Assembly: GCA_014297435.1 (NCBI GenBank)
Contig: JACOQA010000002.1
Coordinates: forward strand, 64,001 to 128,000
DNA from: Candidatus Nanohaloarchaea archaeon
GTDB lineage: Archaea > Nanohalarchaeota > Nanosalinia > Nanosalinales > Nanosalinaceae
Direction: 5' to 3'
Length of the DNA: 64,000 nt
Shown: positions 9,344 to 23,281 of the stretch, in pieces
How the letters are laid out: every line of letters begins with the position of its first letter
How positions within the stretch are numbered: the first letter of the stretch is position 1
The notes under the pieces: model-generated
Seen by the model: the letters and a program-made list of their open reading frames with translations, nothing else
Told to the model about the DNA's origin: nothing
Databases searched by the model: none
Translations under genes and position numbers: made by a program

Positions 9344-10366
9344 ATGGACACCGAGGAGCGCAAACAACTGGTCCTGAGAAATACTACCGAAATCGTTACA
9401 GAAGAAGAACTTGACGAAGTTCTGGAAAAAGATAGTCCAACCACTTATGTAGGCTATGAGACCTCGGGTCCTGTACACCTCGGACACTGGGCATCCATAA
9501 GAAAACTGAACGATCTTCAAAAGGCAGGTTTCGACCTCAAAGTTCTCTTCGCAGATCTTCACACATACTTGAACAAGAAAGGCGAGGAGGAGTGGATCCA
9601 GACCATGACTGAGTACTGGGAAGCCACGTTCAAGGCCACAGGGCTTGACGCAGAGTTCGTCCGTGGCAGAGAGTTCCAGGAAGAGACAGAATACTTCCAT
9701 GACGTCCTCGAAATGTCGAAAGAAACCACGATTAACAGAGGGCAGCGTTCGATGGCGGAAGTTGCTTCAGGCGAAGAAGACAGCCAAAGCATTTCACAGA
9801 TCGTTTACCCGTTGATGCAAGCACTGGATATCGAATATCTTGATGTCGATCTATCTATGGGTGCGACCGATCAGAGAAAGATCCACATGCTAGCCAGGGA
9901 AGCACTGCCAAAAGTCGGTTACGACAAGCCGGCATGCCTGCACCACCCGCTGGTCGTGTCTCTACAGGGAACCGAGAAGATGAGTAGCTCTAAGCCAGGC
10001 ACCATGTTCCCTCTACATGCCTCCGAGGAAACAGTGAAGGAAAGGATCAAGGACGCCTACTGTCCTCAAGGCGAAATCGAGGACAACCCGGTAATCCAGA
10101 TCACACAGTTCCATATCTTCGGCGACGACGAAGAACTTGAGATAGAAAGACCGGAAGAGTACGGCGGAAACATCCACTACTCGAACCAGGAAGAGCTTGA
10201 GGAAGACTTCGAATCCGGCGAACTACACCCACAGGACCTGAAAAACTCGGTTGCCGACCACATCGCCGAGAAACTGGAACCGGTAAGGCAGAAGTTCAAA
10301 GATAATCCAGAGCTTCTGGACTGTCTGGAGGAGATCGGGCACGAGAAGCCGGATTACGTCAAATAG
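9344..10366 (+). CDS. tyrS: Tyrosine--tRNA ligase (archaeal type)
   Basis: YVGYETSGPVHLGH (HIGH), YPLMQALD, DQRKIHMLARE, KMSSS. Confidence 0.96.
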   Translation: MDTEERKQLVLRNTTEIVTEEELDEVLEKDSPTTYVGYETSGPVHLGHWASIRKLNDLQKAGFDLKVLFADLHTYLNKKGEEEWIQTMTEYWEATFKATGLDAEFVRGREFQEETEYFHDVLEMSKETTINRGQRSMAEVASGEEDSQSISQIVYPLMQALDIEYLDVDLSMGATDQRKIHMLAREALPKVGYDKPACLHHPLVVSLQGTEKMSSSKPGTMFPLHASEETVKERIKDAYCPQGEIEDNPVIQITQFHIFGDDEELEIERPEEYGGNIHYSNQEELEEDFESGELHPQDLKNSVADHIAEKLEPVRQKFKDNPELLDCLEEIGHEKPDYVK

Positions 10367-11140: not shown

Positions 11141-11173
11141 ATGAAGGGTGGACGTTTTTCCAACAAAAGGTAG
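11141..11173 (+). CDS. Candidate micro-ORF MKGGRFSNKR (GG-leader family copy C)
   Basis: ATG AAG GGT GGA CGT TTT; shares AAGGGTGGACGTTTT with copy A; degenerate TATA TTCTAAAA ends 24 nt upstream. Confidence 0.4.
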   Translation: MKGGRFSNKR

Positions 11174-11226
11174 AATCGAAGCTGTAAAACCTGTTCTAGA
11201 AAAAGCTTTCTTCACAAGTGGTCTGT

Positions 11227-12495
11227 ATGCTTGATATCGAACTTTTCCGAAACAATCCCGAGAAGATTAAGGAGTCGGAGAAACGCCGCGACAAAGAACC
11301 TTCAAAGGTAGATAAGGTTGTAAAGACCGATGAGGAATGGCGTGAAAAGCTCCAGGAACTCGATAAGTTAAGACAGGAAAGAAATACTGTAGGCGATGAA
11401 ATAGCTTCGCTTAAACAAGAGGGTGAGGAAGCTTCCGAGAAGATCGAAAGAATGCAGGAAGTGAAAGAGAAGATATCTGAATTGGAGGAAGAAGTTGAAG
11501 ATCTCAAAGAGGAAAGAGATGAACTTCGTTACGAAATCGGTAATATCCTCCATGAATCCGTTCCTAAAGGCATGGATGAAGAAGATAACGTAGAGGAGAG
11601 AACTTGGGAGCCTGAGAATGGGAAGGACGAGGATTCCAGACTGGCAGCCGATATTATCGAAGAAAACGATTTAGTTGAGACAGAGAAGGCTGCAGAACTG
11701 GCAGGAGAAAGAGCTTACTACCTGAAAAAAGACTTGTTCCGCTTGAACCAGGCCTTGATCCAGTTCTCGATGGACCTTTTGAGCGAGAAAGGTTTCACAC
11801 CGATGCAGACACCTTACATGCTAAAGCACGAGCCTATGGCGGCAGCAGCCGAGCTCGAGGACTTTGAAGAACAGCTATACAAGATAGAAGATGAGGACAA
11901 GTACCTTATCGCTACTTCCGAACAGACCTTGGCTACTTTCCATAAGGACGATATCCTGCTTCCTGACGAGTTTCCGAAAAAGTACGCAGGATTTTCAACC
12001 AACTTCAGGCAGGAAGCCGGCAAACACGGACAACAAACCAGAGGCATCTGGAGAGTCCACCAATTCGAGAAAGTGGAGCAGTACATCTTCTGCAAACCCG
12101 AAAATTCGTGGGAGCTCCACGAGGAACTGCTTGATAACGCGGAAGAAGTTATGCAGGAGCTTGGACTTCCTTACCGCGTTGTGAACGTCTGTACTGGCGA
12201 TATGAATGATAATGCCGCGAAGAAGTACGATATCGAGGTCTGGAGACCTCCAATCGGCGAGTACGGAGAGGTCGTCTCGTGCTCTAACTGTACCGACTTC
12301 CAAGCCAGAAAAGTAAACGTCAGGATTCGCGGAAGCGATGAAAATCATGTAGCACATACATTAAACGCTACAGCAGTCGCAACCTCAAGGATCATGACAG
12401 CAATTATAGAGAACAATCAGGAAGAGGAAGGAGTAAGAATTCCTGAACCGCTCCAAAACTACATGGGCGGACAAAAGTACATAGAGACAGTTTAG
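11227..12495 (+). CDS. serS: Serine--tRNA ligase
   Basis: N-terminal coiled-coil arm, YLIATSEQ, FRQEAG, GIWRVHQFEKVEQ, EVVSCSNCTDFQAR, HTLNAT. Confidence 0.97.
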   Translation: MLDIELFRNNPEKIKESEKRRDKEPSKVDKVVKTDEEWREKLQELDKLRQERNTVGDEIASLKQEGEEASEKIERMQEVKEKISELEEEVEDLKEERDELRYEIGNILHESVPKGMDEEDNVEERTWEPENGKDEDSRLAADIIEENDLVETEKAAELAGERAYYLKKDLFRLNQALIQFSMDLLSEKGFTPMQTPYMLKHEPMAAAAELEDFEEQLYKIEDEDKYLIATSEQTLATFHKDDILLPDEFPKKYAGFSTNFRQEAGKHGQQTRGIWRVHQFEKVEQYIFCKPENSWELHEELLDNAEEVMQELGLPYRVVNVCTGDMNDNAAKKYDIEVWRPPIGEYGEVVSCSNCTDFQARKVNVRIRGSDENHVAHTLNATAVATSRIMTAIIENNQEEEGVRIPEPLQNYMGGQKYIETV

Positions 12496-12779
12496 GCGCT
12501 GTGGGAGATTTCTCCGACCTTGCAATCCTCCTCTATCTTTTCTCCACCACAGCTTTCGTTTTCCGGAGCCGAAAGCAAAGCCATCAACTGAGTGTCCCTC
12601 AAACCTTTACCAGAGGAATTTTCTAGAGCATTCATAACGTCTTCTCTAAGATCCATCTCTTCATAATGTTCTGTATAGAAATCCTTCATCCCTTCTAGTT
12701 CTCTTCCGGTGTATTGACCTGTTTGACTTAGCTTCTGACTGAAAACATCGTAGGTCTCTATCTCGAAGTATTGGGACAT
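12492..12779 (-). CDS. Hypothetical protein
   Basis: 95-aa acidic ORF with a TATA-like element upstream (about 12807-12812). Confidence 0.6.
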   Translation of the reverse strand: MSQYFEIETYDVFSQKLSQTGQYTGRELEGMKDFYTEHYEEMDLREDVMNALENSSGKGLRDTQLMALLSAPENESCGGEKIEEDCKVGEISHSA

Positions 12780-12821
12780 GCTAACGTACCTGCTTCAATC
12801 TGAAGATTTATAAGAGATTGA

Positions 12822-13112
12822 CTAGTTTCCATCGCCGAACTCCCCCAGAGGGATCTCTGATGAGCCAAGATAATCAAAGGAATGTTCGTAATTCAGACCT
12901 CCATCAGCGACAGTTTCCTGATTTTCCTCTTCAAGCATCTCTGACTGGAAACCGTCCATCCCAAGCTGCTCGATATAATCCGGATCTTCGATTCCATAAG
13001 CTTCATCGCCCTCAACCATCAAATCGTCCTCTTTACTGGATTCGATATAGCCTTCAGGGTCTTGAACGATTGGAACTTCCGGATCTCTTCCTATCCTAGG
13101 ACAGTAATCCAT
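12822..13112 (-). CDS. Hypothetical acidic protein with a TVADGG motif, downstream of leader A
   Basis: 96 aa; its ATG overlaps the stop of the His/Thr micro-ORF (TAATG). Confidence 0.7.
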   Translation of the reverse strand: MDYCPRIGRDPEVPIVQDPEGYIESSKEDDLMVEGDEAYGIEDPDYIEQLGMDGFQSEMLEEENQETVADGGLNYEHSFDYLGSSEIPLGEFGDGN

Positions 13113-13186
13113 TATAAACCCTCTCCAGATGTTTTTTCAGGTTTTGCGATGCGGCACCGTATTGTTGTGTGGTTGTGTGTTGTCAT
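13112..13186 (-). CDS. Candidate His/Thr-rich micro-ORF MTTHNHTTIRCRIAKPEKTSGEGL
   Basis: Translated by hand; stop overlaps the next start; similar to 22884-22964. Confidence 0.55.
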   Translation of the reverse strand: MTTHNHTTIRCRIAKPEKTSGEGL

Positions 13187-13298
13187 ATCGAGTAGAACCT
13201 CGAAAAGAGAATTATTGGTTTAATGCAGCACTGCCACATTCACTGCGGCAGCGGAGAACATTTTAATTGAATGTTTAATTGAGGAGATCTGAGAAAAC

Positions 13299-13355
13299 TT
13301 AGAGCAGAAGCTTCCGGGACTCAAGCACAAAACGTCCACCCTTGATTCCGCTCAT
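13299..13355 (-). CDS. Candidate leaderless micro-ORF MSGIKGGRFVLESRKLLL (GG-leader copy A)
   Basis: TATATAA (13380-13386) ends 24 nt before the ATG; in-frame AAG GGT GGA CGT. Confidence 0.55.
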   Translation of the reverse strand: MSGIKGGRFVLESRKLLL

Positions 13356-13400
13356 ATCCTAACAAAGTTCAGAAGACAGTTATATAGTTTAGGACGGTTT

Positions 13401-14606
13401 CTACCAGACCATCAGTGAGTGCTCATCCCTTACAAGATCCTCATCCCATTTTTCAGGAACATTTTCAGGAACAAGTTTCCTGAGCTCCTCTTGATTCACT
13501 TCACCCAGAAGTCTTTTTCGCTCCTCTTTCATCTGTCCGGGTCTGTTTCTTATTGCGTCACGATCAGGCTCACCGTCAAAGCTTCCTCTAACGGCGTTAC
13601 CCAGTATGTGCGCCATGTCGTTGACGTCCTCGCCATTGATCCTCATGTCGTTATCGGAGTAAAGGATGAACTCGAGATCCGGATTAAATACGTATCTCCC
13701 GTCCCCGTCTGCCTCAACTAGGTATTCAGGAGCGCTCCTATCAATATGACCGAGCAAGCCAAGTCCATTGAGGGTTGCGGCGTGGCGACCCCACATCTCC
13801 GCGTCGTTCTTAGAGATACCCATACTATCAACAGGCTCTGACCATGAGTGAAGTATTCCAACATCAAGGTTCGATTTTTCATAACCTCTGTTTCTCGTTT
13901 TCGGTTCTTTGCTGTCTACCCATAATTGTTCAGGTCTTGTGAGACGTGTGAGTCCAGGATGTATTTGTCCTAATTCATCGTGTACGCCTTCGTCTCTATC
14001 GAGTGCTGTTCTCAGTCCTACTTCCTGTATCCAGCCTTGTTCTCCGTTTTCTATTTGACCGTTAGTGACGTCGTAGTTTCCTTCACCGAATACCTGTTGA
14101 AGGTTGGAAAGATCGCCGGCGTCTAGAGAGCTTCGGGTTATAAGGTCAGTATCATATGATCGGGCGACGCGTATTCCTATGTACTCATTGTCATCCGAAA
14201 CTGCGTATGCTGCACTTGGAGGCTGCTTTATTCCTTCAGGATCGAAATCTTCTCTAAAGAATATTTCAAACTCTTCATCCGGACCTTCTTCTGGCTCCAC
14301 CGCCAGTTTGACATCTAGCTCGTCTCTTTTTTCGTTGTATTCCTCCCAGAGCTGTTTCTGGTCTGGTTTCATCCGGGTACCTGTATTAGTGTTTCGCCCC
14401 ATGCTTCCTGAAGCCATGTATGAATTGCCCGAACGACCGCCATCGGATAGATCCTCTACAAGTTCATAAACAGGCTCGTGGACTATATCGAACATGTCTA
14501 GGACTGACTGCGGTTCGTCATCCACGTACACTTGGATGTCCTCAATGCGGCTTATATCGTAAGAATTCACTTCCCCCTCCCCGTCATAGCTACTGGCGAG
14601 TGACAC
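13401..14606 (-). CDS. Orphan protein with an N-terminal Pol-beta-like nucleotidyltransferase motif and a C-terminal kinase-like motif
   Basis: SGSMGRNT...ELDV...DTDL, and WGRHAATL..LGLLGHID...NPDLE; ORF is solid, function is inferred. Confidence 0.5.
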   Translation of the reverse strand: MSLASSYDGEGEVNSYDISRIEDIQVYVDDEPQSVLDMFDIVHEPVYELVEDLSDGGRSGNSYMASGSMGRNTNTGTRMKPDQKQLWEEYNEKRDELDVKLAVEPEEGPDEEFEIFFREDFDPEGIKQPPSAAYAVSDDNEYIGIRVARSYDTDLITRSSLDAGDLSNLQQVFGEGNYDVTNGQIENGEQGWIQEVGLRTALDRDEGVHDELGQIHPGLTRLTRPEQLWVDSKEPKTRNRGYEKSNLDVGILHSWSEPVDSMGISKNDAEMWGRHAATLNGLGLLGHIDRSAPEYLVEADGDGRYVFNPDLEFILYSDNDMRINGEDVNDMAHILGNAVRGSFDGEPDRDAIRNRPGQMKEERKRLLGEVNQEELRKLVPENVPEKWDEDLVRDEHSLMVW

Positions 14607-14665
14607 TTATATCACTTCCGGCATCTTCAGTATGGATTTCCAAAGACCTGATAGAAGACTGCGAG

Positions 14666-14710
14666 TTAACCTTGCAGAAAGCATCCACCTTTTATTGTGG
14701 TGTAGCGCAT
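14666..14710 (-). CDS. Candidate leaderless micro-ORF MRYTTIKGGCFLQG (GG-leader copy D)
   Basis: TTTTATAAA (14735-14743) ends 24 nt before the ATG; in-frame AAA GGT GGA. Confidence 0.5.
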   Translation of the reverse strand: MRYTTIKGGCFLQG

Positions 14711-14808
14711 ACTTTATAGCGTTCAAACTCAGAATTTATAAAAGGACGTGGAGTCAGCGCCTCTAAAACCAGTATGGATTTAAGTGAGTTCATGTCTCAT
14801 GGAAGGGT

Positions 14809-16857
14809 ATGGAAACAACGGTCATGGTCGGGGAGAAGCCCAAAGTCGCCTCCCGGATCGCCAACGCCCTCGGAAACTACGACACCAAGACCAACCGAGG
14901 GGTCAAGAACTACGTAATCAAGACAGATGAGAGAAAGATAATCATAGCACCTGCCGTAGGCCACATATTCAACCTCGACCAGATCGCCGACAACTGGGAC
15001 TACCCTGTATTCGACGTAGAATGGAAGCCAACATTCGAAACTTCCGACTCGGCCGACTACATGAAGAAATACTACAACAACCTGAAAGACCAGCTGGAAA
15101 AGGCTGACACCTACATCAACGCGTGCGACTTCGACCTTGAAGGCTCTGTTATCGGATACAACGTTATCAAACACTTGACTGGTGCCGATGAAGAAAGAAT
15201 CGAACGCATGAAGTTCTCGACACTGACTCCTTCCGACCTACAGGAAGCATTTGATAACCTGGAGGATTTTGACGCCGGAATGACAGAAGCCGGAATAACA
15301 AGACACATTCTCGACTACTACTACGGTATCAACGTTTCCCGTGCACTGATGAAAGCGGTTAGAGATAACGACCGTTACAAGACTCTTTCTACAGGACGTG
15401 TGCAGGGTCCGACACTTAAGATCTTGGCGGACAGAGAAAAAGAAATACAGGAGTTTGAACCGGATCCTTACTGGGAGCTTTACCTAAAACATGCGGAGTT
15501 TGACGCTCAGTGGGAGGAAGACGAGGACAGGATCTGGGACCAAGAAACAGCGAACGACAAGTTCAACAAGGTATACGGAGAAACCGAAGCAGAAGTCACA
15601 AACGTGAAGGTAAACAACTATACGCACAAGCCACCGATACCTTTCAACCTGACAGGACTACAGAGCGAGGCCTCATCACAGTTCCGTATAAGCCCAAAGA
15701 AGACGCAGTCGATCGCGCAAACACTTTACGAAAACGGGCTTATCTCTTATCCTAGAACCGAGTCACAGAAACTGCCGCCGAAGATCGGATACAAGAACAT
15801 ACTGAACAAGCTGAAGGGTCAGGAAAGCTACGATAATCTGGCGAAAAAAGTACTGAAAAAAGATAAAAACGACAACCTTTACACGACGCAGGGAAGTAAA
15901 GAAGACGACGCACACCCTGCAATCTATCCAACAGGAGAAAGCCCGGGCGGAAAACTGTCAAAACAGGAGAAAAAAGTCTATGATTTAATTGTAAAACGTT
16001 TCTTCGCCGTATTCGGCAAACCAGCCAAACGTCAATCCCTTACCTTCACTCTCGACGTTAAGGAAGAAGAGTTCAAGGCCAAGTCAAAGGTTACAAAGAA
16101 GAGGAACTGGTACGAGCTCTACGATCCATACGTTAAAGTGGATTCGGCCGATCTCCCGGACATGGAGGAAGGCCAGACACTCCAGGTAGAAGACTTCGAA
16201 CTTGTTGACAAAGAAACGCAGCCACCTAACCGTTACAGCCAGTCAAAGATTGTCAACGAGCTTGAGAAACGAGAACTAGGTACAAAAGCGACACGTGCCG
16301 ACACCGTAGACCGCCTTTACGACAGGAACTACATCGAAGAGGAGCCTATCGAAGTAACGGACCTGGGACTTGCGATCGTAAACACTCTAGAGGACTACTG
16401 TGGCAACATCGTCTCCGAAGAGCTTACACGCGAATTCGAGGAAAAGATGCAGGAAATAAGAGAGCAGAAAAACACGAAAGAAGAAGTTCTGGAAGAGGCA
16501 AGAAACGAGTTAGGAGATATACTCGAAAAGTTCAAGGAGAAACAGAAACAGATTGGTTCAGAGCTTGTCGACACAATCGACTCCGAAAGAGAACGCAGAA
16601 GAAGACTAGGTCCATGCGATATCGAGGATTGTGACGGCACCCTAAAAATAATCAAGGCAAACGGCTCAAAATTCGTAGGATGCTCAAACTACCCTGACTG
16701 CGAAAACACATACCCATTACCGAACAACGGAGATATAAAGTCGACAAACGAGGTCTGCGAGGAATGCGGAACACCTAAGATCTTCGTAAGCAGGAAGAAA
16801 GGAAAAGACTACACGATGTGCCTATTTCCGGATTGTCCTACAAAAGATTCTTGGTAG
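14809..16857 (+). CDS. topA: DNA topoisomerase I (type IA)
   Basis: TOPRIM EKP and DFDLEG, STGRVQGPTL, active-site LISYPRTES, C-terminal Cys4 zinc ribbons. Confidence 0.97.
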   Translation: METTVMVGEKPKVASRIANALGNYDTKTNRGVKNYVIKTDERKIIIAPAVGHIFNLDQIADNWDYPVFDVEWKPTFETSDSADYMKKYYNNLKDQLEKADTYINACDFDLEGSVIGYNVIKHLTGADEERIERMKFSTLTPSDLQEAFDNLEDFDAGMTEAGITRHILDYYYGINVSRALMKAVRDNDRYKTLSTGRVQGPTLKILADREKEIQEFEPDPYWELYLKHAEFDAQWEEDEDRIWDQETANDKFNKVYGETEAEVTNVKVNNYTHKPPIPFNLTGLQSEASSQFRISPKKTQSIAQTLYENGLISYPRTESQKLPPKIGYKNILNKLKGQESYDNLAKKVLKKDKNDNLYTTQGSKEDDAHPAIYPTGESPGGKLSKQEKKVYDLIVKRFFAVFGKPAKRQSLTFTLDVKEEEFKAKSKVTKKRNWYELYDPYVKVDSADLPDMEEGQTLQVEDFELVDKETQPPNRYSQSKIVNELEKRELGTKATRADTVDRLYDRNYIEEEPIEVTDLGLAIVNTLEDYCGNIVSEELTREFEEKMQEIREQKNTKEEVLEEARNELGDILEKFKEKQKQIGSELVDTIDSERERRRRLGPCDIEDCDGTLKIIKANGSKFVGCSNYPDCENTYPLPNNGDIKSTNEVCEECGTPKIFVSRKKGKDYTMCLFPDCPTKDSW

Positions 16858-16861
16858 CGGC

Positions 16862-18347
16862 TTAAATAATCTTGTAACGCTCCTCTAGATTCCTAATCTC
16901 CTCTTTGCTATGCTTGGAAAACTTTGGTTCGTATCTGTAGAAAGTTGAGAAAAAACGGACTAAGGTCCAGTTCTTGGAGCAATATCTGTCTTCATTCCGC
17001 CCGATTTCGGTTTTAAAAACATTTTCAATCTCTGAGGCTACGCTCTCATTCTTCTTTCTTATTCTAAGTTCGTTTCCTGTACACAGTATATTTGAGGCGA
17101 TACCATCTAATCTTGAGTTAGGTTTTAATGGCAATCTAATTTCAGAATTTTCGTTACCTCTAACCCCTACTTTGTATCTGAGTTGGTTTTCTCCCATTAG
17201 CCGATGTGTTTCCGCCTTTCCGAAAAGTTCAACAATTTTCGAAACCGGTGCTGCATACTTATCTTCCTCCCAAGTGTAGACCTGATGTCTGGATATCTCT
17301 AAGTTTGAGGCTATCTGACGCTGATAAAGCCCTCTTTCTTCTCTCAAGCCCTGATATTATCGCCTAAACCTTCACCCTAAGATCCTCTACCTGATGAGGT
17401 CAAAGAAGTCTTTGAAGAAGTTTGACTTCTTTCTACCTCGATAAACGTAAGTTCGGGAACCTTTTTCCAGCTTCCTTATCATTTCTTTTTTCTTACGCGG
17501 ATGAGAGAACCCCCACATTATTACAGAAATTTCCGAAGTCCCTAGGACTGAACCTCAGAAGATAGGACCCAGGTTTCCGGATCTCACCTTCGATATTGAT
17601 TCCTTGCATATCGTTCTGACATGTTTCAAGAAAAGACCTAGTAGCTGAAGAGAGCGAAACTCTATAACTCTCCTGAGGCATACACCCATCCGTGTCAAAT
17701 ACTCCTCTCCAGTAGGCGTTAGATAGGTCTCCAGAGTCAAAAATTTCTGGGCGAGATAGTTCTCCTTTCTTGTAGGATTTAGGTAGGTTGAAACAGTGTC
17801 GGATGTATCGGCAGAACCATTTGTTAGCTATTTTAAGTTCGATTTTATTGCCTCTCTCGAGTATGCAGCATGTGCTTTCTGGTAAACCGAAGAGTTTCTG
17901 AACTAGTTCCTAGAGTTTCTCGATAAATTTTCTTGAGTCTTCGAGTTCTTCCGGCTTTCCTCCATCTACTACGCTCCATATGTTAGGTCCGTTGAATCCG
18001 CCATCTCCTGCTGCTACGCCTGCAAAGTATGCAAATTTCTCGGTTTTGAGATCCGAGTTTTTTCTTGGCGGATCGAGTTTTGAGGAGTTTCGTGAGCTGG
18101 TTATGTATTCTATTTCTTGGGACATCGTTTTTTCGTTGATGAGTTCTGAGAGGATGTCCATAGACCATGTCTGTTTTTCTTTACATCTTTGCATGGTCTG
18201 AGAAGTAATATTATGTTCTTCTGGATCTAAAATGTTGTATATTTCCTTGTTTCTTTCTTTGCCTATCTTAGCGTAGGGTATAGACTTTCGGCTTTCTTCT
18301 TTGCCGTTAATAAGGGCTTTAGACAAGTTGATGATTTCCTCTGGCAT
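16862..18347 (-). pseudogene. Disrupted two-motif LAGLIDADG endonuclease-like gene with a downstream HTH segment
   Basis: FAYFAGVAAGDGG, in-frame TAG at 17910-17912, then YWRGVFDTDG in the same frame, frameshifts near 17510 and 17370, then HTH-like GLYQRQIASNLEISRHQVYTWE. Confidence 0.7.
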
Positions 18348-18434
18348 GTAGATTTATTACTGGGCTTCTTTTGAAAAGTGGAGCGGACGGAGTTCCGTTA
18401 GTTCCGGTAGAAAAAGAACAAAAACAGTTATTTA

Positions 18435-18731
18435 TCATTTAGATGACTGTTCGCCATCGTGAAGTTTTTCTCTTTCTAGGTCGATTGCGGTATCGATCAA
18501 GAGACGTCCTAGCTGCCTTCCTCTTTCCCGGGACATGCCTTTTTCTTCGAACCTGTCCGCGAACTGCTCCATGACCTGTTCCTCCCGATTCTCATCCTTT
18601 ATCTCTATATCGTTTTTCTCTTTATACTCGATGACTTTGAGGACTTCTTCCATCCTGTCATCAATTTTCTCAACTATCTCATCGTTTATACTGTCGATGT
18701 TGCCGCGGGCATCTTCCAGAGGATTCGCCAT
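18435..18731 (-). CDS. Chorismate mutase (AroQ type)
   Basis: LEDARGNIDSINDEIV...R...IEYK...DENREEQV; last gene of the Phe/Tyr operon. Confidence 0.88.
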   Translation of the reverse strand: MANPLEDARGNIDSINDEIVEKIDDRMEEVLKVIEYKEKNDIEIKDENREEQVMEQFADRFEEKGMSRERGRQLGRLLIDTAIDLEREKLHDGEQSSK

Positions 18732-18757
18732 AATAGGTTATGATTGAACGGTCTTTT

Positions 18758-19615
18758 TTACTTACGGACTTCATCGCTCAAATGCTCTATTACCAGATCT
18801 GTTCTTTCCTGCGCATCTTCAAGATCGAACTCTTCGCCCAACTCCTCAAACTTTTCTGCGAAAGCCTCTTCATCCCCTATTATTTCCTGTATCTCCTCAG
18901 CGGACTCCTTGAATCGTTCACGTACTTTTTCGTTCTCAGGGTTTTCGGCCTGTATAGAGCCGTAAAGTCCGGACTTCTGATTCAGCATTCTTGCTGTAAG
19001 ATCGGTAATTAACTGGTAGACCGGAGAAGAATATTCTGACATCTCCGAACCCGACATATCTGACTTCCTGATGGTTTCGGAAACCACGAGCTCTGAGAAA
19101 TGCATCAATCCCTGTACAAGACTCATCGCCTTATCATGCGACTCAGCATCTGTGACATGTATATGTGCGTCTTTCCGGTTCCAGAACTCTTCCATAGCCG
19201 TCCATTTCTTCCCTTCAATCGGAGTTAAGACAATTTTCTGACCTTCAACCGAGTTCGAAGGGGCATACATCGGATGCATCCCCAGAACTTCATCAGAATA
19301 CTGTTTCATAGCCTCTGTCGGCTTCTTCTTAACGCTTGTAATATCGCAGAACAAGGTATCGTCCGAAATATGTGAACCGATCTCTTCAATAACATCAACA
19401 GTTACAGCGATAGGAACTGCCACGATTACGACATCCGCATCTTTTACTATCTCGGTGTTTTCTCCAAAATCCCATCCATGTTTATTTGCCACTTCTTCGG
19501 CCTCTTCAAGACTTTCACCGGAGATAGTTATCTCGTTGTGTTCTTCGAGAAGTTTTCCTAGGTGTTGGCCGAACTGACCGGTTCCGCCGACAATAACGAT
19601 TTTTTCGTCTATCAT
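18758..19615 (-). CDS. tyrA: Prephenate dehydrogenase
   Basis: Rossmann IVGGTGQFG, DITSVK, GMHPMYAP, HDKAMSLVQGLMH. Confidence 0.92.
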   Translation of the reverse strand: MIDEKIVIVGGTGQFGQHLGKLLEEHNEITISGESLEEAEEVANKHGWDFGENTEIVKDADVVIVAVPIAVTVDVIEEIGSHISDDTLFCDITSVKKKPTEAMKQYSDEVLGMHPMYAPSNSVEGQKIVLTPIEGKKWTAMEEFWNRKDAHIHVTDAESHDKAMSLVQGLMHFSELVVSETIRKSDMSGSEMSEYSSPVYQLITDLTARMLNQKSGLYGSIQAENPENEKVRERFKESAEEIQEIIGDEEAFAEKFEELGEEFDLEDAQERTDLVIEHLSDEVRK

Positions 19616-20724
19616 AGTTCCTCCTCCAGGATGTCGAACGCTTTGTTGATTTCTTCTTTAGTTGTTGAGCCGAAACATATTCTGACATTTTGATCGCTTT
19701 CCGGACCCATAGGTTCGCCAGGAACCATCGCAACACCTTCCTCGATCATATCAAGACAGAAATCCCAGGAATCCTCTTTAACCTCGGGAAATGCATAGAT
19801 CGCTCCTTCAGGCATCTGAAAATCCCATCCTAGCTCGTTCATTCTTTCGACAAGCAGGTCTCTTCTTTCCTCGTAAACCTGCCTCATCTCTTCAACGTGT
19901 GAATCATTTTCCAGTGCTTCAAGCGCTGCAATCTGCGAGGGTTTTGGCGGACAGGCAGTTGCTCCTCTCGCGACTTTCGCAAAGTTCTCTATATCATCTT
20001 CTCTTCCTACCACCCAGCCTATTCTCCAGCCAGTCATCGCATGATTCTTCGAAACTGAACCGATCACTACAGAGTTTTCACAGTATGCTGCAGGCGAATA
20101 ATGAGTCTTTCCATAATTCAGGCGATGGTATACCTCATCGGAAAGAAGCATGACGTCATTTTCTTCACAGAACTTTCCGATGTTCTTCGCTTGTTTTTCT
20201 GTTAGCATTCTTCCTGTCGGGTTTGAAGGCGTGTTAACCACGACAAGCTCTGCATCTTTCATTTCCTGCTTTGCTTCGTCTCTAAGTTCTTCGCCATCAA
20301 AGTACTCTACTTGTGTCCACTGATTGCCGTTAACCTCACTCATCAATTTGTACGGACCCCAGCAAGGATCGTTAAATACAGCTTCTTTGTTCGAGTCAAG
20401 CATTGCCGCAAAAACAGAGTAAATCGCTCCCATTCCGCCTGTAGCAACCATAACGTTTTCTTTAGAAAGCTCGGCGTTTTTCGGACCAGTTTTTTGCTTT
20501 AATCCTTCTTCCTCAACAATGGCTTTTCTCAATTTTTCAATACCTGTTACTGATGTATATCCCTGTTTCTGTTCGACTATTCCGTCTGCTGCAGCCTTTT
20601 TAACATGTTCAGGCGTGTCAAAGCTTGGCTGACCGATATCAAATCGGACACATTTATCTTGTTCTCTTGCTTTTTCCGAAATCTTTCTGATCGAAAGCTC
20701 TATGTTTTCAATTCTTTCACGCAT
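19612..20724 (-). CDS. Class I/II PLP-dependent (aromatic/aspartate) aminotransferase
   Basis: GQPSFDTP, NTPSNPTG, SDEVY, SVSKNHAMTGWRIG. Confidence 0.92.
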   Translation of the reverse strand: MRERIENIELSIRKISEKAREQDKCVRFDIGQPSFDTPEHVKKAAADGIVEQKQGYTSVTGIEKLRKAIVEEEGLKQKTGPKNAELSKENVMVATGGMGAIYSVFAAMLDSNKEAVFNDPCWGPYKLMSEVNGNQWTQVEYFDGEELRDEAKQEMKDAELVVVNTPSNPTGRMLTEKQAKNIGKFCEENDVMLLSDEVYHRLNYGKTHYSPAAYCENSVVIGSVSKNHAMTGWRIGWVVGREDDIENFAKVARGATACPPKPSQIAALEALENDSHVEEMRQVYEERRDLLVERMNELGWDFQMPEGAIYAFPEVKEDSWDFCLDMIEEGVAMVPGEPMGPESDQNVRICFGSTTKEEINKAFDILEEEL

Positions 20725-21493
20725 CTTTACCACCGAATGATCCAAGGACTTTAACCTCGGCGTAAGTTTCCAGACATTTTTTCGTGTTCTCGAATTTCTC
20801 AGAGTTCTGGTCGGCCTCCGCCTCTATGTAGAAAAAGTAGTTTCCAAGACCATCTTTAGTCGGCCGAGACTGGATGTACGCCAAGTTAATTCCGTGTCCA
20901 GAAAAACATGAAAGCATCGACCCTAGAAGACCCGGACGATCCTCACCCGGCTCCACTATCATCGATGTCTTACTGCCTTCACTTTGTTTACCGTTTAAGA
21001 TGAAGAACCTGGTAGTGTTTGACTCACGATCCTGTACGCTTTCCTCCAGAATGTTTAGATCGTTTAGTTGTGCTGCAAGCTTGGAGCAGATCGCGGCTTC
21101 ACCTTCTTCTATTTCCTCAGCGGCTTTGGCAGTGCTTGAAGACTCTTTTTTCTCCCAGCCATTTTCTCCAATTATCTTTTTTGACTGTGTCAGTGCTTGT
21201 GGATGAGACCGAACTTTCTCGACATCGTTAATGTTTCCTTCTTTTGAGGCTAGTACGTGATCGATCTCGACCTTTACCTGTCCTGTAACCTCAACATCTC
21301 TTTCTCTCAACAAGTCGATCGATTCTGTTACTCCACCTCCAAGAGAGTTTTCGAACGGTATTACTGCTGCCTTGGCATCTGATTCAACCGCCTCTGTTAT
21401 AGTGGAGACCGGAACCGGTTCATAGTTGGAGAAGTATTTTTCTGCAGCTTGATGGGTGTATGTGCCTTCAGGTCCTAGGAACGCTACTTTCAT
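20717..21493 (-). CDS. pheA: Prephenate dehydratase with ACT domain
   Basis: VAFLGPEGTYT, PFENSLGG, SHPQAL, NTTRF, IQSRP. Confidence 0.94.
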   Translation of the reverse strand: MKVAFLGPEGTYTHQAAEKYFSNYEPVPVSTITEAVESDAKAAVIPFENSLGGGVTESIDLLRERDVEVTGQVKVEIDHVLASKEGNINDVEKVRSHPQALTQSKKIIGENGWEKKESSSTAKAAEEIEEGEAAICSKLAAQLNDLNILEESVQDRESNTTRFFILNGKQSEGSKTSMIVEPGEDRPGLLGSMLSCFSGHGINLAYIQSRPTKDGLGNYFFYIEAEADQNSEKFENTKKCLETYAEVKVLGSFGGKDA

Positions 21494-21759
21494 TACATAT
21501 CCTCTTCCTGTAAATCAACAGCAGTATCTATCAGTAGTTCAGCGAGTTCCCGACCTTTTTCTCGAGGTAGGTCTTCTTTTTCGAAAAGCTTCTCGAACTG
21601 ATCCTTAACAACTTCCTCTCTGCCTTCATCCTTGATTTCCATGCCGTTCTGTTTCTTGTATTCGCCGATCTCCTCGACAACGTTCATCCTGCGGGAAACT
21701 GCGTCAACGATCTCGGTATTAACCCTGTCAATCTCCTTCCGGTAATCCTCAAGATCCAT
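21493..21759 (-). CDS. Chorismate mutase (AroQ type), second copy
   Basis: LEDYRKEIDRVNTEIV...RR...IGEYK...DEGREEVV; similar to 18435-18731. Confidence 0.88.
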   Translation of the reverse strand: MDLEDYRKEIDRVNTEIVDAVSRRMNVVEEIGEYKKQNGMEIKDEGREEVVKDQFEKLFEKEDLPREKGRELAELLIDTAVDLQEEDM

Positions 21760-21800
21760 GTCTTTGATTCACCTTCGAAGCGTTTTATAAATGGCGGAGG

Positions 21801-22382
21801 TTATGGGGTGTTGAAATGCCCCATGTAGGGAGTATCCTCCGTATCAACATCTTCCATCTCTCTGTGACGAGTTCCATCATAAGTCGGAAAACCGCCATCA
21901 GTAACGACTGCTTTCTCCGATTCTTCAGTAACTTGGATCTCCCACGACGATTTCTCGCCATATTCTTTCCCCAGTTCCTGTCGGGTTTCGAACACCGTGT
22001 CTCGAACCTCAGAACGTTCACCGGCAATAACTACCTCATCGTCGAACTCGAAAACTTCAACATTCTCAGGTGCAGCTTTTTCGGCTTCATCCTTGCCGCT
22101 TTCAAATGTTCGTTGATACTCGAAACCGTTCTGGAAAACTTTTGGAAATGCTTCACGGAAACCTTCGATTCCTGCACCCTGGTCATAAACTTCTATGGAG
22201 TCGTCATAGTCGACTACTTTTATCCTGCCGTGATCGCTGTTGACATGTATATCTCTTCCGTTGGCGTCCCCTGGATAGTTCCAGGACCGGGCGGTTTCTA
22301 CAATCTCTTCCTCGTAACTTTCAGGCACCTCAACTTCTGTCCCGACATGGGTTGGCGAAAAGTCGAATCTTTTTGCAGCCAT
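21801..22382 (-). CDS. Hypothetical acidic protein with a VVTDGG motif
   Basis: 193 aa; coupled to the upstream ORF by a TAATG overlap. Confidence 0.75.
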   Translation of the reverse strand: MAAKRFDFSPTHVGTEVEVPESYEEEIVETARSWNYPGDANGRDIHVNSDHGRIKVVDYDDSIEVYDQGAGIEGFREAFPKVFQNGFEYQRTFESGKDEAEKAAPENVEVFEFDDEVVIAGERSEVRDTVFETRQELGKEYGEKSSWEIQVTEESEKAVVTDGGFPTYDGTRHREMEDVDTEDTPYMGHFNTP

Positions 22383-22879
22383 TATTCCATCACCGGGAAG
22401 CCGTCGTAGCTGTCAAAGGTGTTCGGTCTGTAGGTTTCTCCGTGGAACCAGCGTTCGATCTGTTTTGCCTGCTGAGGGTTCATATTACTGCCGATAACAT
22501 CATCAAGAAACTCATTTGTCTGATCGTAAACTTCATCAACAGCTGATTCGATCTCCATCATCTCATCCCTGTTAAAGGCGTACTCCTGAGAGATAGCCTC
22601 ACTACTTCCTTCAACGAATCTTTCTCCCGGGACTTCTAATGTGTCGAAGAACTCGCCATATTTTTGAGAGGGTTCTACATCTTCCTCCGGTTCGGCCAAT
22701 TTTTCCCACCAGATCTGACCTGAAGGATCTACATCATACACAGGATCTTCTCCTCCGTCCGTAACGGTTCTGTCGACTCTGCCGTTTACGGTTTCGAGCT
22801 CTCCTTCAGCTGTTTCCTTGAAGGTCATATGTGGAGCCTCTACTCTTTCCTTGATGCTGGAATCGCCTCCAGTATACAT
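22382..22879 (-). CDS. Hypothetical acidic protein with a TVTDGG motif, downstream of leader B
   Basis: 165 aa; ATG lies 4 nt after the His/Thr micro-ORF stop. Confidence 0.75.
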   Translation of the reverse strand: MYTGGDSSIKERVEAPHMTFKETAEGELETVNGRVDRTVTDGGEDPVYDVDPSGQIWWEKLAEPEEDVEPSQKYGEFFDTLEVPGERFVEGSSEAISQEYAFNRDEMMEIESAVDEVYDQTNEFLDDVIGSNMNPQQAKQIERWFHGETYRPNTFDSYDGFPVME

Positions 22880-22883
22880 GCTC

Positions 22884-22964
22884 TCAATACCTCTCTGGTT
22901 TTTCTGAATTAGTTTTGGGTTTTTCTCTCATGCCGTGTGTTGTGTGGTGTGTGTTGTGTGTCAT
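22884..22964 (-). CDS. Candidate His/Thr-rich micro-ORF MTHNTHHTTHGMREKPKTNSEKPERY
   Basis: Translated by hand; 4 His and 4 Thr in codons 2-10; similar to 13112-13186. Confidence 0.55.
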   Translation of the reverse strand: MTHNTHHTTHGMREKPKTNSEKPERY

Positions 22965-23145
22965 GATTGTATCACGAATACGAAATGGCGTTTTCTACGG
23001 TTTTACCGTGAGAAAAGCCTTTTTTGGAATTTACAGCAGAATCAGTAGCAGCAGAAGTAGCAGTAAAATTGAAGATAATACGAAGTCAGTAGAAACCGAA
23101 ATTTTAGTTGAGAAGATCCGTGAGAAAGCTGGGGCTCGACCCGTC

Positions 23146-23187
23146 TTAAAGTTGCAGAACCCGTCCACCCTGAGTTGCGGACATCAT
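23146..23187 (-). CDS. Candidate leaderless micro-ORF MMSATQGGRVLQL (GG-leader copy B)
   Basis: TTTATAAA (23212-23219) ends 24 nt before the ATG; in-frame CAG GGT GGA CGG. Confidence 0.55.
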   Translation of the reverse strand: MMSATQGGRVLQL

Positions 23188-23281
23188 CGTAACTATGAAT
23201 AGACAACAGAATTTATAAACAATTTGCCGCACACACCCAGGCTAAGCCAGCTATTTATTATTTGAACTGGACATACAGTTC

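Follow-up and report, generated by a model that had tools for sequence, protein, structure and literature searches.

Gene-matched specifier codons in leader open reading frames of Nanohaloarchaea: a candidate amino-acid sensor read out by +1 frameshifting

Four leaders and the family they belong to

The window analysed here is a 64-kb stretch of DNA, positions 64,001 to 128,000 of contig JACOQA010000002.1 (C8:64001-128000) from Candidatus Nanohaloarchaea archaeon, whose genome spans 1.0 Mb in 15 contigs, has 44% G+C and is 99% complete by marker genes. It contains four very short upstream open reading frames (uORFs), A to D, each with a TATA-like box 24 nucleotides (nt) 5' of its ATG and each carrying GGT GGA in frame with that ATG. 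Leader C stands before serS, the gene for seryl-tRNA synthetase, and leaders A, B and D stand before orphan genes (Table 1). A first-pass annotation of the stretch had described these four micro-ORFs; on re-reading, their coordinates and peptides were correct, the box was present in all of them and the frame of GGT GGA held in 4/4. Its tally of four sites was too low, since the genome holds 13 such uORFs and one copy lacking an ATG. We report that these uORFs belong to a family, found across Nanohaloarchaea, in which the codon behind a fixed motif names the amino acid of the downstream synthetase, and we consider how a ribosome might turn that codon into a regulatory signal.

The family was collected with a 15-mer shared by the copies and then with relaxed codon patterns, uORFs being sought in the form M-x(0-9)-[KQEPS]-GGT GGA YGN followed by TTT, GTT or GAA. 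The uORFs are intergenic and lie 70-290 nt 5' of a gene on the same strand, and an AT-rich box at -36 to -24 from the uORF ATG is a general feature. The 12-mer GGTGGAYGYTTT occurs 12 times in this genome against 0 times for the reversed control, and across 41 genomes it gives 137 matches against 17. It was found in 33/41 relatives and in 57/70 genomes of the phylum as the collection represents it, the families contributing 46/49 (f1), 8/8 (f4), 2/10 (f3), 0/1 (f2) and 0/1 (f5). When all species genomes were scanned with ATGAARGGTGGAYGYTTT, the matches listed from outside the Nanohaloarchaea came from scattered bacteria in about the number expected by chance (estimated at some 140), and they leave the presence of the element outside the phylum undecided. 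A scan of this genome for further variant leaders (TATA box, ATG, in-frame GGTG and an open +1 frame) gave none that was convincing.

The position of the motif relative to upstream start codons is strongly biased. In this genome and its relatives together, an ATG in frame 0 (within 75 nt upstream and with no intervening stop) precedes 123 of 134 distinct copies, and the other two frames have only 4 and 4. Among the 11 copies without such an ATG are five second sensors of the cascades described below, one copy with a masked run of N and five apparent chance matches within coding sequence. Paralogous copies differ by insertions or deletions in multiples of three, as between A and C1:137282 or between B and C10:47766. 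The proposal of the first-pass annotation that these are translated uORF control elements thus gains from the frame bias, the triplet indels and the conservation throughout the phylum, while its emphasis on orphan genes and on a (K/Q)GG peptide did not survive the comparisons given below.

We give practically no weight to the idea that the copies are chance similarities, remnants of a repeat, or a site in the DNA bound by a transcription factor just 3' of the promoter. The motif does lie near promoters, and A and B resemble each other beyond it, yet the excess over reversed controls in 41 genomes, a distance from the TATA box that varies from 0 to about 20 codons while the motif is always in frame, and the match of specifier to gene all contradict it. 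Other candidates were also tried and dropped. An opposite-strand gene remnant or repeat was rejected when blastn of the four regions against the genome returned only short motif matches, GGTGGA as the Shine-Dalgarno (SD) sequence of a downstream start found a suitably spaced GTG at site A only, and a C/D-box small RNA, suggested by ATGATG...CTGC in site B, was not general across copies.

Within the window, serS was identified by TIGR00414 (474 bits against a cut-off of 301.65, scored on 11218-12495). The orphan proteins downstream of the other leaders have no Pfam or NCBIfam match, and they were rejected as a single family, being mostly unrelated by blastp. Leader A and its gene have counterparts in a genome of the same genus (L116), where an orthologous leader precedes a 97-aa gene, the two proteins being 56% identical. 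Leader B is a variant with GTT where other copies have TTT. Leaders A and B show extra similarity downstream of the motif, and each carries a second uORF; these second uORFs are paralogous, rich in Thr and His codons (MTTHNHTT..., MTHNTHHTTH...) and stop at the main ATG or 5 nt from it. Each looks like a classical multi-codon leader peptide stacked 3' of the GGTGGA sensor.

Table 1. Features of the four leaders and their genes, in window positions; promoter boxes were read from the sequence
Feature	Position	Strand	Remarks
Leader C, weak TATA-like box TTCTAAAA	11109..11116	+	end 24 nt 5' of uORF ATG
Leader C, uORF MKGGRFSNKR* (serS leader)	11141..11173	+	motif GGTGGACGTTTT at 11147-11158
Leader C, specifier codon TCC (Ser)	11159..11161	+	
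Leader C, +1-frame open stretch, 28 codons	11148..11234	+	TGA stop 11232-11234
serS, seryl-tRNA synthetase, under leader C	11227..12495	+	ATG at 11227
Leader A, TATATAA box	13380..13386	-	24 nt 5' of ATG
Leader A, uORF MSGIKGGRFVLESRKLLL*	13299..13355	-	motif 13329-13340; specifier GTG (Val) 13326-13328
Leader A, +1-frame open stretch, 39 codons	13220..13339	-	end 110 nt 5' of main ATG
Leader A, second uORF MTTHNHTTIRCRIAKPEKTSGEGL*	13112..13186	-	Thr/His-codon-rich; TAA overlaps main ATG (TAATG)
96-aa acidic orphan gene, 3' of leader A	12822..13112	-	no Pfam or NCBIfam match
Leader D, box TTTATAAA	14735..14742	-	24 nt 5' of ATG
Leader D, uORF MRYTTIKGGCFLQG*	14666..14710	-	motif 14678-14689; specifier CTG (Leu) 14675-14677
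Leader D, +1-frame open stretch, 32 codons	14590..14688	-	ends in or just 5' of start region of 401-aa ORF
401-aa orphan gene, 3' of leader D	13401..14606	-	no family match; start GTG 14606 or GTG 14570
Leader B, box TTTATAAA	23212..23219	-	24 nt 5' of first ATG
Leader B, uORF MMSATQGGRVLQL*	23146..23187	-	variant motif GGTGGACGGGTT 23158-23169; then CTG (Leu) 23155-23157
Leader B, +1-frame open stretch, 45 codons	23031..23168	-	
Leader B, second uORF MTHNTHHTTHGMREKPKTNSEKPERY*	22884..22964	-	paralogous to second uORF of leader A; end 5 nt 5' of main ATG
165-aa orphan gene, 3' of leader B	22382..22879	-	no family match

Specifier codons and downstream genes

In 71/71 identifiable pairs, covering ten amino acids and with no mismatch, the codon after GGT GGA YGY TTT encodes the amino acid of the downstream synthetase. 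In this genome the leaders of thrS, serS, glyS and valS carry ACC, TCC, GGA and GTA, the trpS operon lies under two tandem uORFs that both carry TGG, and the argS leader has AGA behind a variant motif whose P-site codon is GAA; all six synthetases were confirmed by NCBIfam above curated cut-offs. The further 65/65 synthetase pairs in relatives comprise thrS (17), serS (14), glyS (13), tyrS (7), valS (6), cysS (3), trpS (2), class II lysS (2) and pheS (1), so that a Ser specifier is found in 15/15 serS leaders. Biosynthesis genes follow as well, with Trp leaders 5' of trpB (L030, L075, L088) and of trpD (L039; E 1e-44, below cut-off) and Ile leaders 5' of ilvA (L033, L064). The first-pass annotation had seen in these uORFs a means of co-regulating lineage-specific orphan genes, with the (K/Q)GG peptide as the informative part; the main targets are instead aminoacyl-tRNA synthetase and amino-acid biosynthesis genes, leader C itself heading serS, and the informative position is the codon behind the motif.

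For the relatives, these assignments cover loci L009-L118, that is, the DNA around nearly all motif matches of 40 genomes, a match at a contig end (G024:C19) being left out. Targets were named with NCBIfam from the first 3' ORF that had 90 codons or more, in sets of 32 proteins at E<=1e-30, 43 at E<=1e-60, and 40 new proteins plus 10 re-tests at E<=1e-40. The synthetase genes of this genome were catalogued with 11 Pfam searches, and the 12 others have no such uORF and look leaderless. Among orthologues the specifiers vary synonymously (Thr ACC/ACA/ACT, Ser TCC/TCT, Tyr TAC/TAT, Val GTA/GTG, Ile ATT/ATC, Lys AAG/AAA), which points to selection on the amino acid or the tRNA that is read rather than on the bases. 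A phylum-wide, amino-acid-specific regulon of leader ORFs governing synthetase and amino-acid genes is, in our view, real, and the specifier pattern strongly supports amino-acid sensing by these ORFs.

Other leaders precede genes outside these classes. The remaining specifiers here are Lys (endonuclease V), Ser (a 106-aa orphan), Val (A), Leu (D) and Val/Leu (B), and an Ile leader precedes a 163-aa orphan followed by a DEAD-box helicase. Further Trp and Phe leaders in relatives precede class I/II aminotransferases, M20-family deacylases, GNAT proteins, GCS2-like and AstE/AspA-like proteins, an inositol monophosphatase-family protein and proteins of no family; these targets in relatives are neutral with respect to the specifier rule.

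Several loci show how the leaders are distributed and combined. The tyrS gene just 5' of the serS leader (9344-10366, +) is leaderless here and has a Tyr-specifier leader in seven relatives, so leaders come and go one gene at a time. In this genome no leader precedes the class I lysS (C1:254683) either; Lys leaders precede class II lysS in two relatives, and the Lys leader of this genome (MQGGCF-K; L004, C1:118500-121900, uORF C1:121281, -) precedes endonuclease V with its +1 stop 2 nt before the ATG. In the trpS operon (L006, C9:85800-91500) the two Trp sensors, at C9:90905 and C9:90646 (-), are about 260 nt apart and have their own TATA boxes; the +1 frame of the second is a 96-codon ORF, followed by an ORF of 126-136 aa and then trpS. 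Many relatives likewise have Trp sensors in tandem (L054, L060, L075, L077, L099, L114, L117, L118, L030). The Ile and Val leaders of relatives (L019, L034/L096, L056, L073, L102, L104, L108) often carry another unit, KGG[RC]-V(GTT)-L(CTG)-Q, in frame with the first sensor and a few codons 3' of it, so that Ile or Val is followed by Val and Leu codons much as in an ilv-leu leader, and site B consists of this second type of unit (GG[RC]V-L-Q) alone. Given these second units, and the second uORFs of A and B, branched-chain and orphan leaders are more complex than synthetase leaders. Finally, a family of 365-376-aa proteins with no Pfam or NCBIfam match lies under Ile leaders in two genomes (L102:443-1570, L108:754-1881), and a paralogue 31% identical to these lies under a Phe leader (L109:233-1327), which suggests that its members may be amino-acid-specific paralogues.

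A codon that names the amino acid of the regulated synthetase is also the logic of the T-box riboswitches of Gram-positive bacteria, cis-acting leaders of synthetase and amino-acid genes in which a single specifier codon serves to read tRNA charging. Moreover, the UGGA within GGUGGA presumably resembles the UGGN of the T-box. It is nevertheless extremely improbable that the leaders are T-box-like or otherwise structured RNAs that bind tRNA or another ligand directly, without translation. A T-box is an untranslated, structured RNA of about 200 nt that binds the tRNA itself and usually controls a terminator, whereas here, in an archaeon, a ribosome translating a leaderless uORF would read the codon. 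Shuffled sequences fold as well as the five leaders that were compared with them (z +1.49 to -1.17), and structured RNA, T-box and attenuator hairpins were rejected on that ground. No Rfam family reached its gathering score anywhere in the 64-kb window, the T-box covariance model (RF00230) was not matched there, and a tRNA scan of the window returned nothing. The specifier would in places be separated from the presumed 5' end by only 18 nt and from UGGA by only 6 nt, which would leave a single tRNA no room to contact both, and the frame bias of 123 against 4 and 4 needs translation. The specifier match of 71/71 is a likeness of function and not a sign of membership in the T-box class.

The +1 frame, the constrained nucleotides and the proposed read-out

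One of the two frames that the uORFs do not use, overlooked in the first-pass annotation, leads up to the main start codon. Frame 0 stops at a median of 13 codons from the start of GGTGGA (7-17 codons in this genome). In this genome 13/13 leaders have a +1 frame that stays open for 28 codons or more, and the stops of frame -1 are scattered. Over 133 copies, 97% are open for at least 24 codons in the +1 frame, against 8% in frame 0 and 29% in frame -1. Likewise, the stop falls at the start of a long ORF (one of 150 codons or more, its start codon being -14 to +19 nt from the stop) in 81 copies for the +1 frame, 1 for frame 0 and 14 for frame -1. Among 70 leaders of synthetase genes or ilvA, the distance from the +1 stop to the first main-ORF ATG is within -11 to +16 nt in 63, being -1 (ATGA) in 21, -5 in 11 and -4 in 4. 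Of the seven outliers, three or more start with GTG in a GTGA overlap (L059, L078, L095). The -5 class is exemplified by serS, where the TGA of leader C lies 5 nt beyond the first base of the ATG in the overlap ATGCTTGA. A stop that overlaps a start codon or lies a few nt from it is the arrangement of translational coupling, and it is found for the +1 frame; the frame-0 stop is never less than 45 nt from the main ATG in the 70 leaders measured.

The cascades use the same frame. In five leaders a second sensor without an ATG lies in the +1 frame of the first and specifies the same amino acid (Ser and Ser in L002 of this genome; Trp in L075, L058, L045 and L117), at a spacing of 58 nt in three and 52 nt in L117 of the four measured. 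Such second sensors would be read in frame only by ribosomes that had shifted +1 at the first sensor or had started at the internal GUG. In L002 (C1:272246-272304, -), the leader of the 106-aa orphan, the second sensor GGAGGTGGACGTTTT[TCT]ATG has a fuller SD match and is followed by an ATG 12 nt later, an arrangement that may allow it to double as an initiation site.

Natural variants indicate what is held constant. The thrS leaders of four genomes of one genus (g23) read ATG AAG GGT GGA TGT or TAT CTT ACA in place of the exact 12-mer, another thrS leader reads ATG AAG GGT GCC CAC TTT ACT, and the first sensors of two cascades have GGTGGC and GGTGAG. These variants change the encoded residues, at the E-site codon (TAT or CAC) and at the P-site codon (CTT), and keep GGTG, the spacing and the NTT codon. 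We conclude from the comparison that the invariants are GGTG, its five-base distance to the NTT codon and the specifier, and not the residues. The caveat of the first-pass annotation, that the constraint might lie on nucleotides, is thus borne out in part.

The same variants bear on the suggestion that (K/Q)GG(R/C)F acts as a nascent peptide in the exit tunnel, or as a functional micropeptide. K/Q-G-G-R/C-F is the commonest reading, and the Lys/Gln and Arg/Cys codons do show synonymous changes. The Gly codons, on the other hand, have no synonymous variation in exact-motif copies, and among the variants GG becomes GE or GA, R/C becomes Y or H and F becomes L. The flanks of the common GG[RC]F peptide are not conserved: the residue before GG may be K, Q, S, T, N, E, P, R or L, and nothing is conserved after the specifier. 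The shortest peptide at the moment of sensing would be six residues. An arrest peptide, which the first-pass annotation had put forward, is accordingly not favoured, and we regard this account as highly improbable.

GGTG is complementary to the 3' end of 16S rRNA, GGATCACCTCCA, taken from four relatives (L119-L122, where the sequence after it is variable); the gene is absent from this genome's assembly. At main starts it would also act as SD: of 69 leaders, 26 have it there, and in 18 of these it lies 6-7 nt 5' of the start codon. It stands 5 nt before the P-site codon, which is closer by one or two bases than in front of start codons. In every exact copy the P-site codon and the next base read UUU-N, and genus g23 has CUU-A, the exceptions being GAA-AGA (argS) and GTT-CTG (site B). 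No TCCACC able to pair with GGTGGA was seen near the main start in the leaders read.

Taken together, these features suggest to us, with a probability of roughly 70%, that the specifier codon of a leaderless uORF is the sensing site for charged tRNA and that a hungry A site there provokes a +1 shift leading to re-initiation at the main start. The TATA box would set the start of the transcript at or beside the uORF AUG, which would make the uORF leaderless. The ribosome would read 1 to about 20 codons and then the fixed GGU GGA YGY UUU, placing UUU (CUU in one genus) in the P site and the specifier codon in the A site. If charged tRNA were plentiful, the specifier would be read and frame-0 translation would terminate well before the main start. 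If it were scarce, the A site would remain empty and the P-site tRNA would slip +1 on UUU-N or CUU-N, the SD-like GGUG 5 nt upstream probably aiding the slip. The shifted ribosome would then pass through the leader in the +1 frame, terminate at or beside the main start codon and re-initiate, so that scarcity of an amino acid X would raise synthesis of its synthetase, XRS. We also consider it fairly probable that the element is a modular "frameshift riboregulator" of Nanohaloarchaea, an exchangeable specifier behind a fixed SD-like and slippery cassette that would convert scarcity, through a +1 frameshift, into access to the main start.

The ribosome might instead merely stall at the specifier codon, without changing frame, and the stalled ribosome would itself be the read-out, by preventing premature termination of transcription, by shielding the mRNA or by exposing the main start. 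Translation of the +1 ORF would then be independent, for instance from the GUG in GGUGGA, or would not occur. The specifier match is just as compatible with this account. Every GGTGGA contains a GTG in the +1 frame, runs of T5 occur in the valS and argS leaders, and some orphan leaders lack the adjacency of +1 stop and start. Stalling alone, however, offers no explanation for why only the +1 frame is open or why it ends at the main start, and it leaves the ATG-less second sensors unexplained. A ribosome stalled with UUU in its P site would, moreover, cover the GUG 8 nt upstream; starvation would then lower translation of the +1 ORF, which is the wrong sign for synthetase genes. In the shortest leaders that GUG is only 7 nt from the presumed 5' end and has no preceding SD, and no alternative hairpins were found. 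Stalling without a frameshift thus seems unlikely to us.

Several observations weigh against the frameshift mechanism and its sensing logic. Both the transcript start and the frameshift have been deduced from sequence alone. Specifiers that begin with A, G or C would put the slipped tRNA-Phe on UUA, UUG or UUC, where re-pairing would be imperfect, and GAA-AGA in the argS leader and GTT-CTG at site B fit slippage poorly. In the orphan-gene leaders A and B, and in several relatives, 60-150 nt separate the +1 stop from the main start 3' of it, so coupling would not be the whole read-out there; in D, too, the stop is in part not at the main start. GGTG is absent within 18 nt of 43/69 main starts, its extension to GGTGGA is more invariant in most copies than an SD-like role needs, no better SD matches were seen, and the pairing is drawn from relatives' 16S rRNA, that of this genome being unassembled. 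Endonuclease V (Lys), the inositol monophosphatase-family protein and GNAT (both Trp) have no evident link to their specifier. Lastly, leaders are inherited together with their genes, so the independent evidence in the specifier match is about a dozen gene families and not 71 events.

Known regulatory systems and biological meaning

Leader-peptide attenuators of bacteria (trpL, hisL, thrL, pheL, ilvL, pheM) likewise use the speed of decoding at cognate codons to report charged tRNA. They contain runs of cognate codons and alternative terminator and antiterminator hairpins, whereas the leaders described here are translated ORFs in which one cognate codon holds a fixed place behind a conserved 12-nt string, without hairpins, and with an open +1 frame that ends at the main start; hairpins with a U run were not found, and T5 runs occur in only some leaders. 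In yeast GCN4, uORFs and re-initiation convert amino-acid starvation into expression of amino-acid genes. There, uncharged tRNA is sensed globally through a kinase and eIF2, with no specificity for a single amino acid and no frameshift.

A parallel layout is that of the +1 frameshift site in prfB, the gene for release factor 2, in which an SD-like element lies a few nt 5' of an NUU codon in the P site and a slowly decoded codon occupies the A site. A shift-prone P-site codon is present in our leaders too, slowness of the A-site codon would follow from the specifier logic, and the +1 frame is open and appears to have a function (97% of 133 copies; 81 stops at long-ORF starts against 1 and 14; five cascades). 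In both, the frameshift would be sensor and effector early in the message, as the treatment of prfB in Atkins et al. (2016, PMC5009743) has it for that gene. The slow codon of prfB is a stop that the product itself reads and its shifted frame encodes the protein, whereas here the slow codon would be a sense codon and the shifted frame only a spacer leading to the start of another ORF. At the CUU_AGG_C sites of Ty1 and ABP140, tRNA-Leu slips +1 from CUU to UUA when the next codon is slow (PMC5009743, section on these sites). The genus with GGT GGA TRT CTT ACA leaders has the same CUU-A geometry; Ty1, for its part, relies on a tRNA that is constitutively rare and yields a fusion protein, and in the leaders the codon varies from gene to gene and matches the gene. 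In the ermC leader, according to the same review's passage on it, a ketolide-induced frameshift carries translation into the spacer and allows initiation of the main gene (PMC5009743). The inducer of ermC is an antibiotic and the effect is an unfolding of mRNA structure; in the nanohaloarchaeal leaders the signal would be an amino acid, no structure is evident and the stop of the new frame overlaps the main start.

Where that review takes up productively used hungry-codon frameshifting, it says "no examples are known" (PMC5009743). Neither Nanohaloarchaea nor synthetase leaders are mentioned in the available part of a review on archaeal recoding from 2021. We found no description of such leader ORFs in searches that did not cover most subscription journals, and a prior description is possible. 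Within the reach of those searches, Archaea have no described cis-acting system for sensing single amino acids or the charging of tRNA. If the mechanism proposed here is true, hungry-codon frameshifting would have its first natural role as a sensor, and Archaea their first amino-acid-specific cis-regulatory system, a translation-only functional counterpart of the bacterial T-box. A read-out by +1 frameshift would fill a gap named in the frameshifting literature, at least as that review words it (PMC5009743), and would mean that the logic of prfB and Ty1 has been recruited as a general amino-acid sensor.

The element is compact (about 18-60 nt), defined by sequence and built around a swappable specifier codon, which makes it testable with reporters, and it could serve as a small amino-acid-responsive switch in haloarchaeal synthetic biology. 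The specifier codon would also label genes of unknown function with the amino acid to which they respond: the orphans of the window would be labelled Val, Leu and Val/Leu, and the 365-376-aa family Ile or Phe. For DPANN symbionts, which depend on their hosts for amino acids, such a label would be a rare clue to function.

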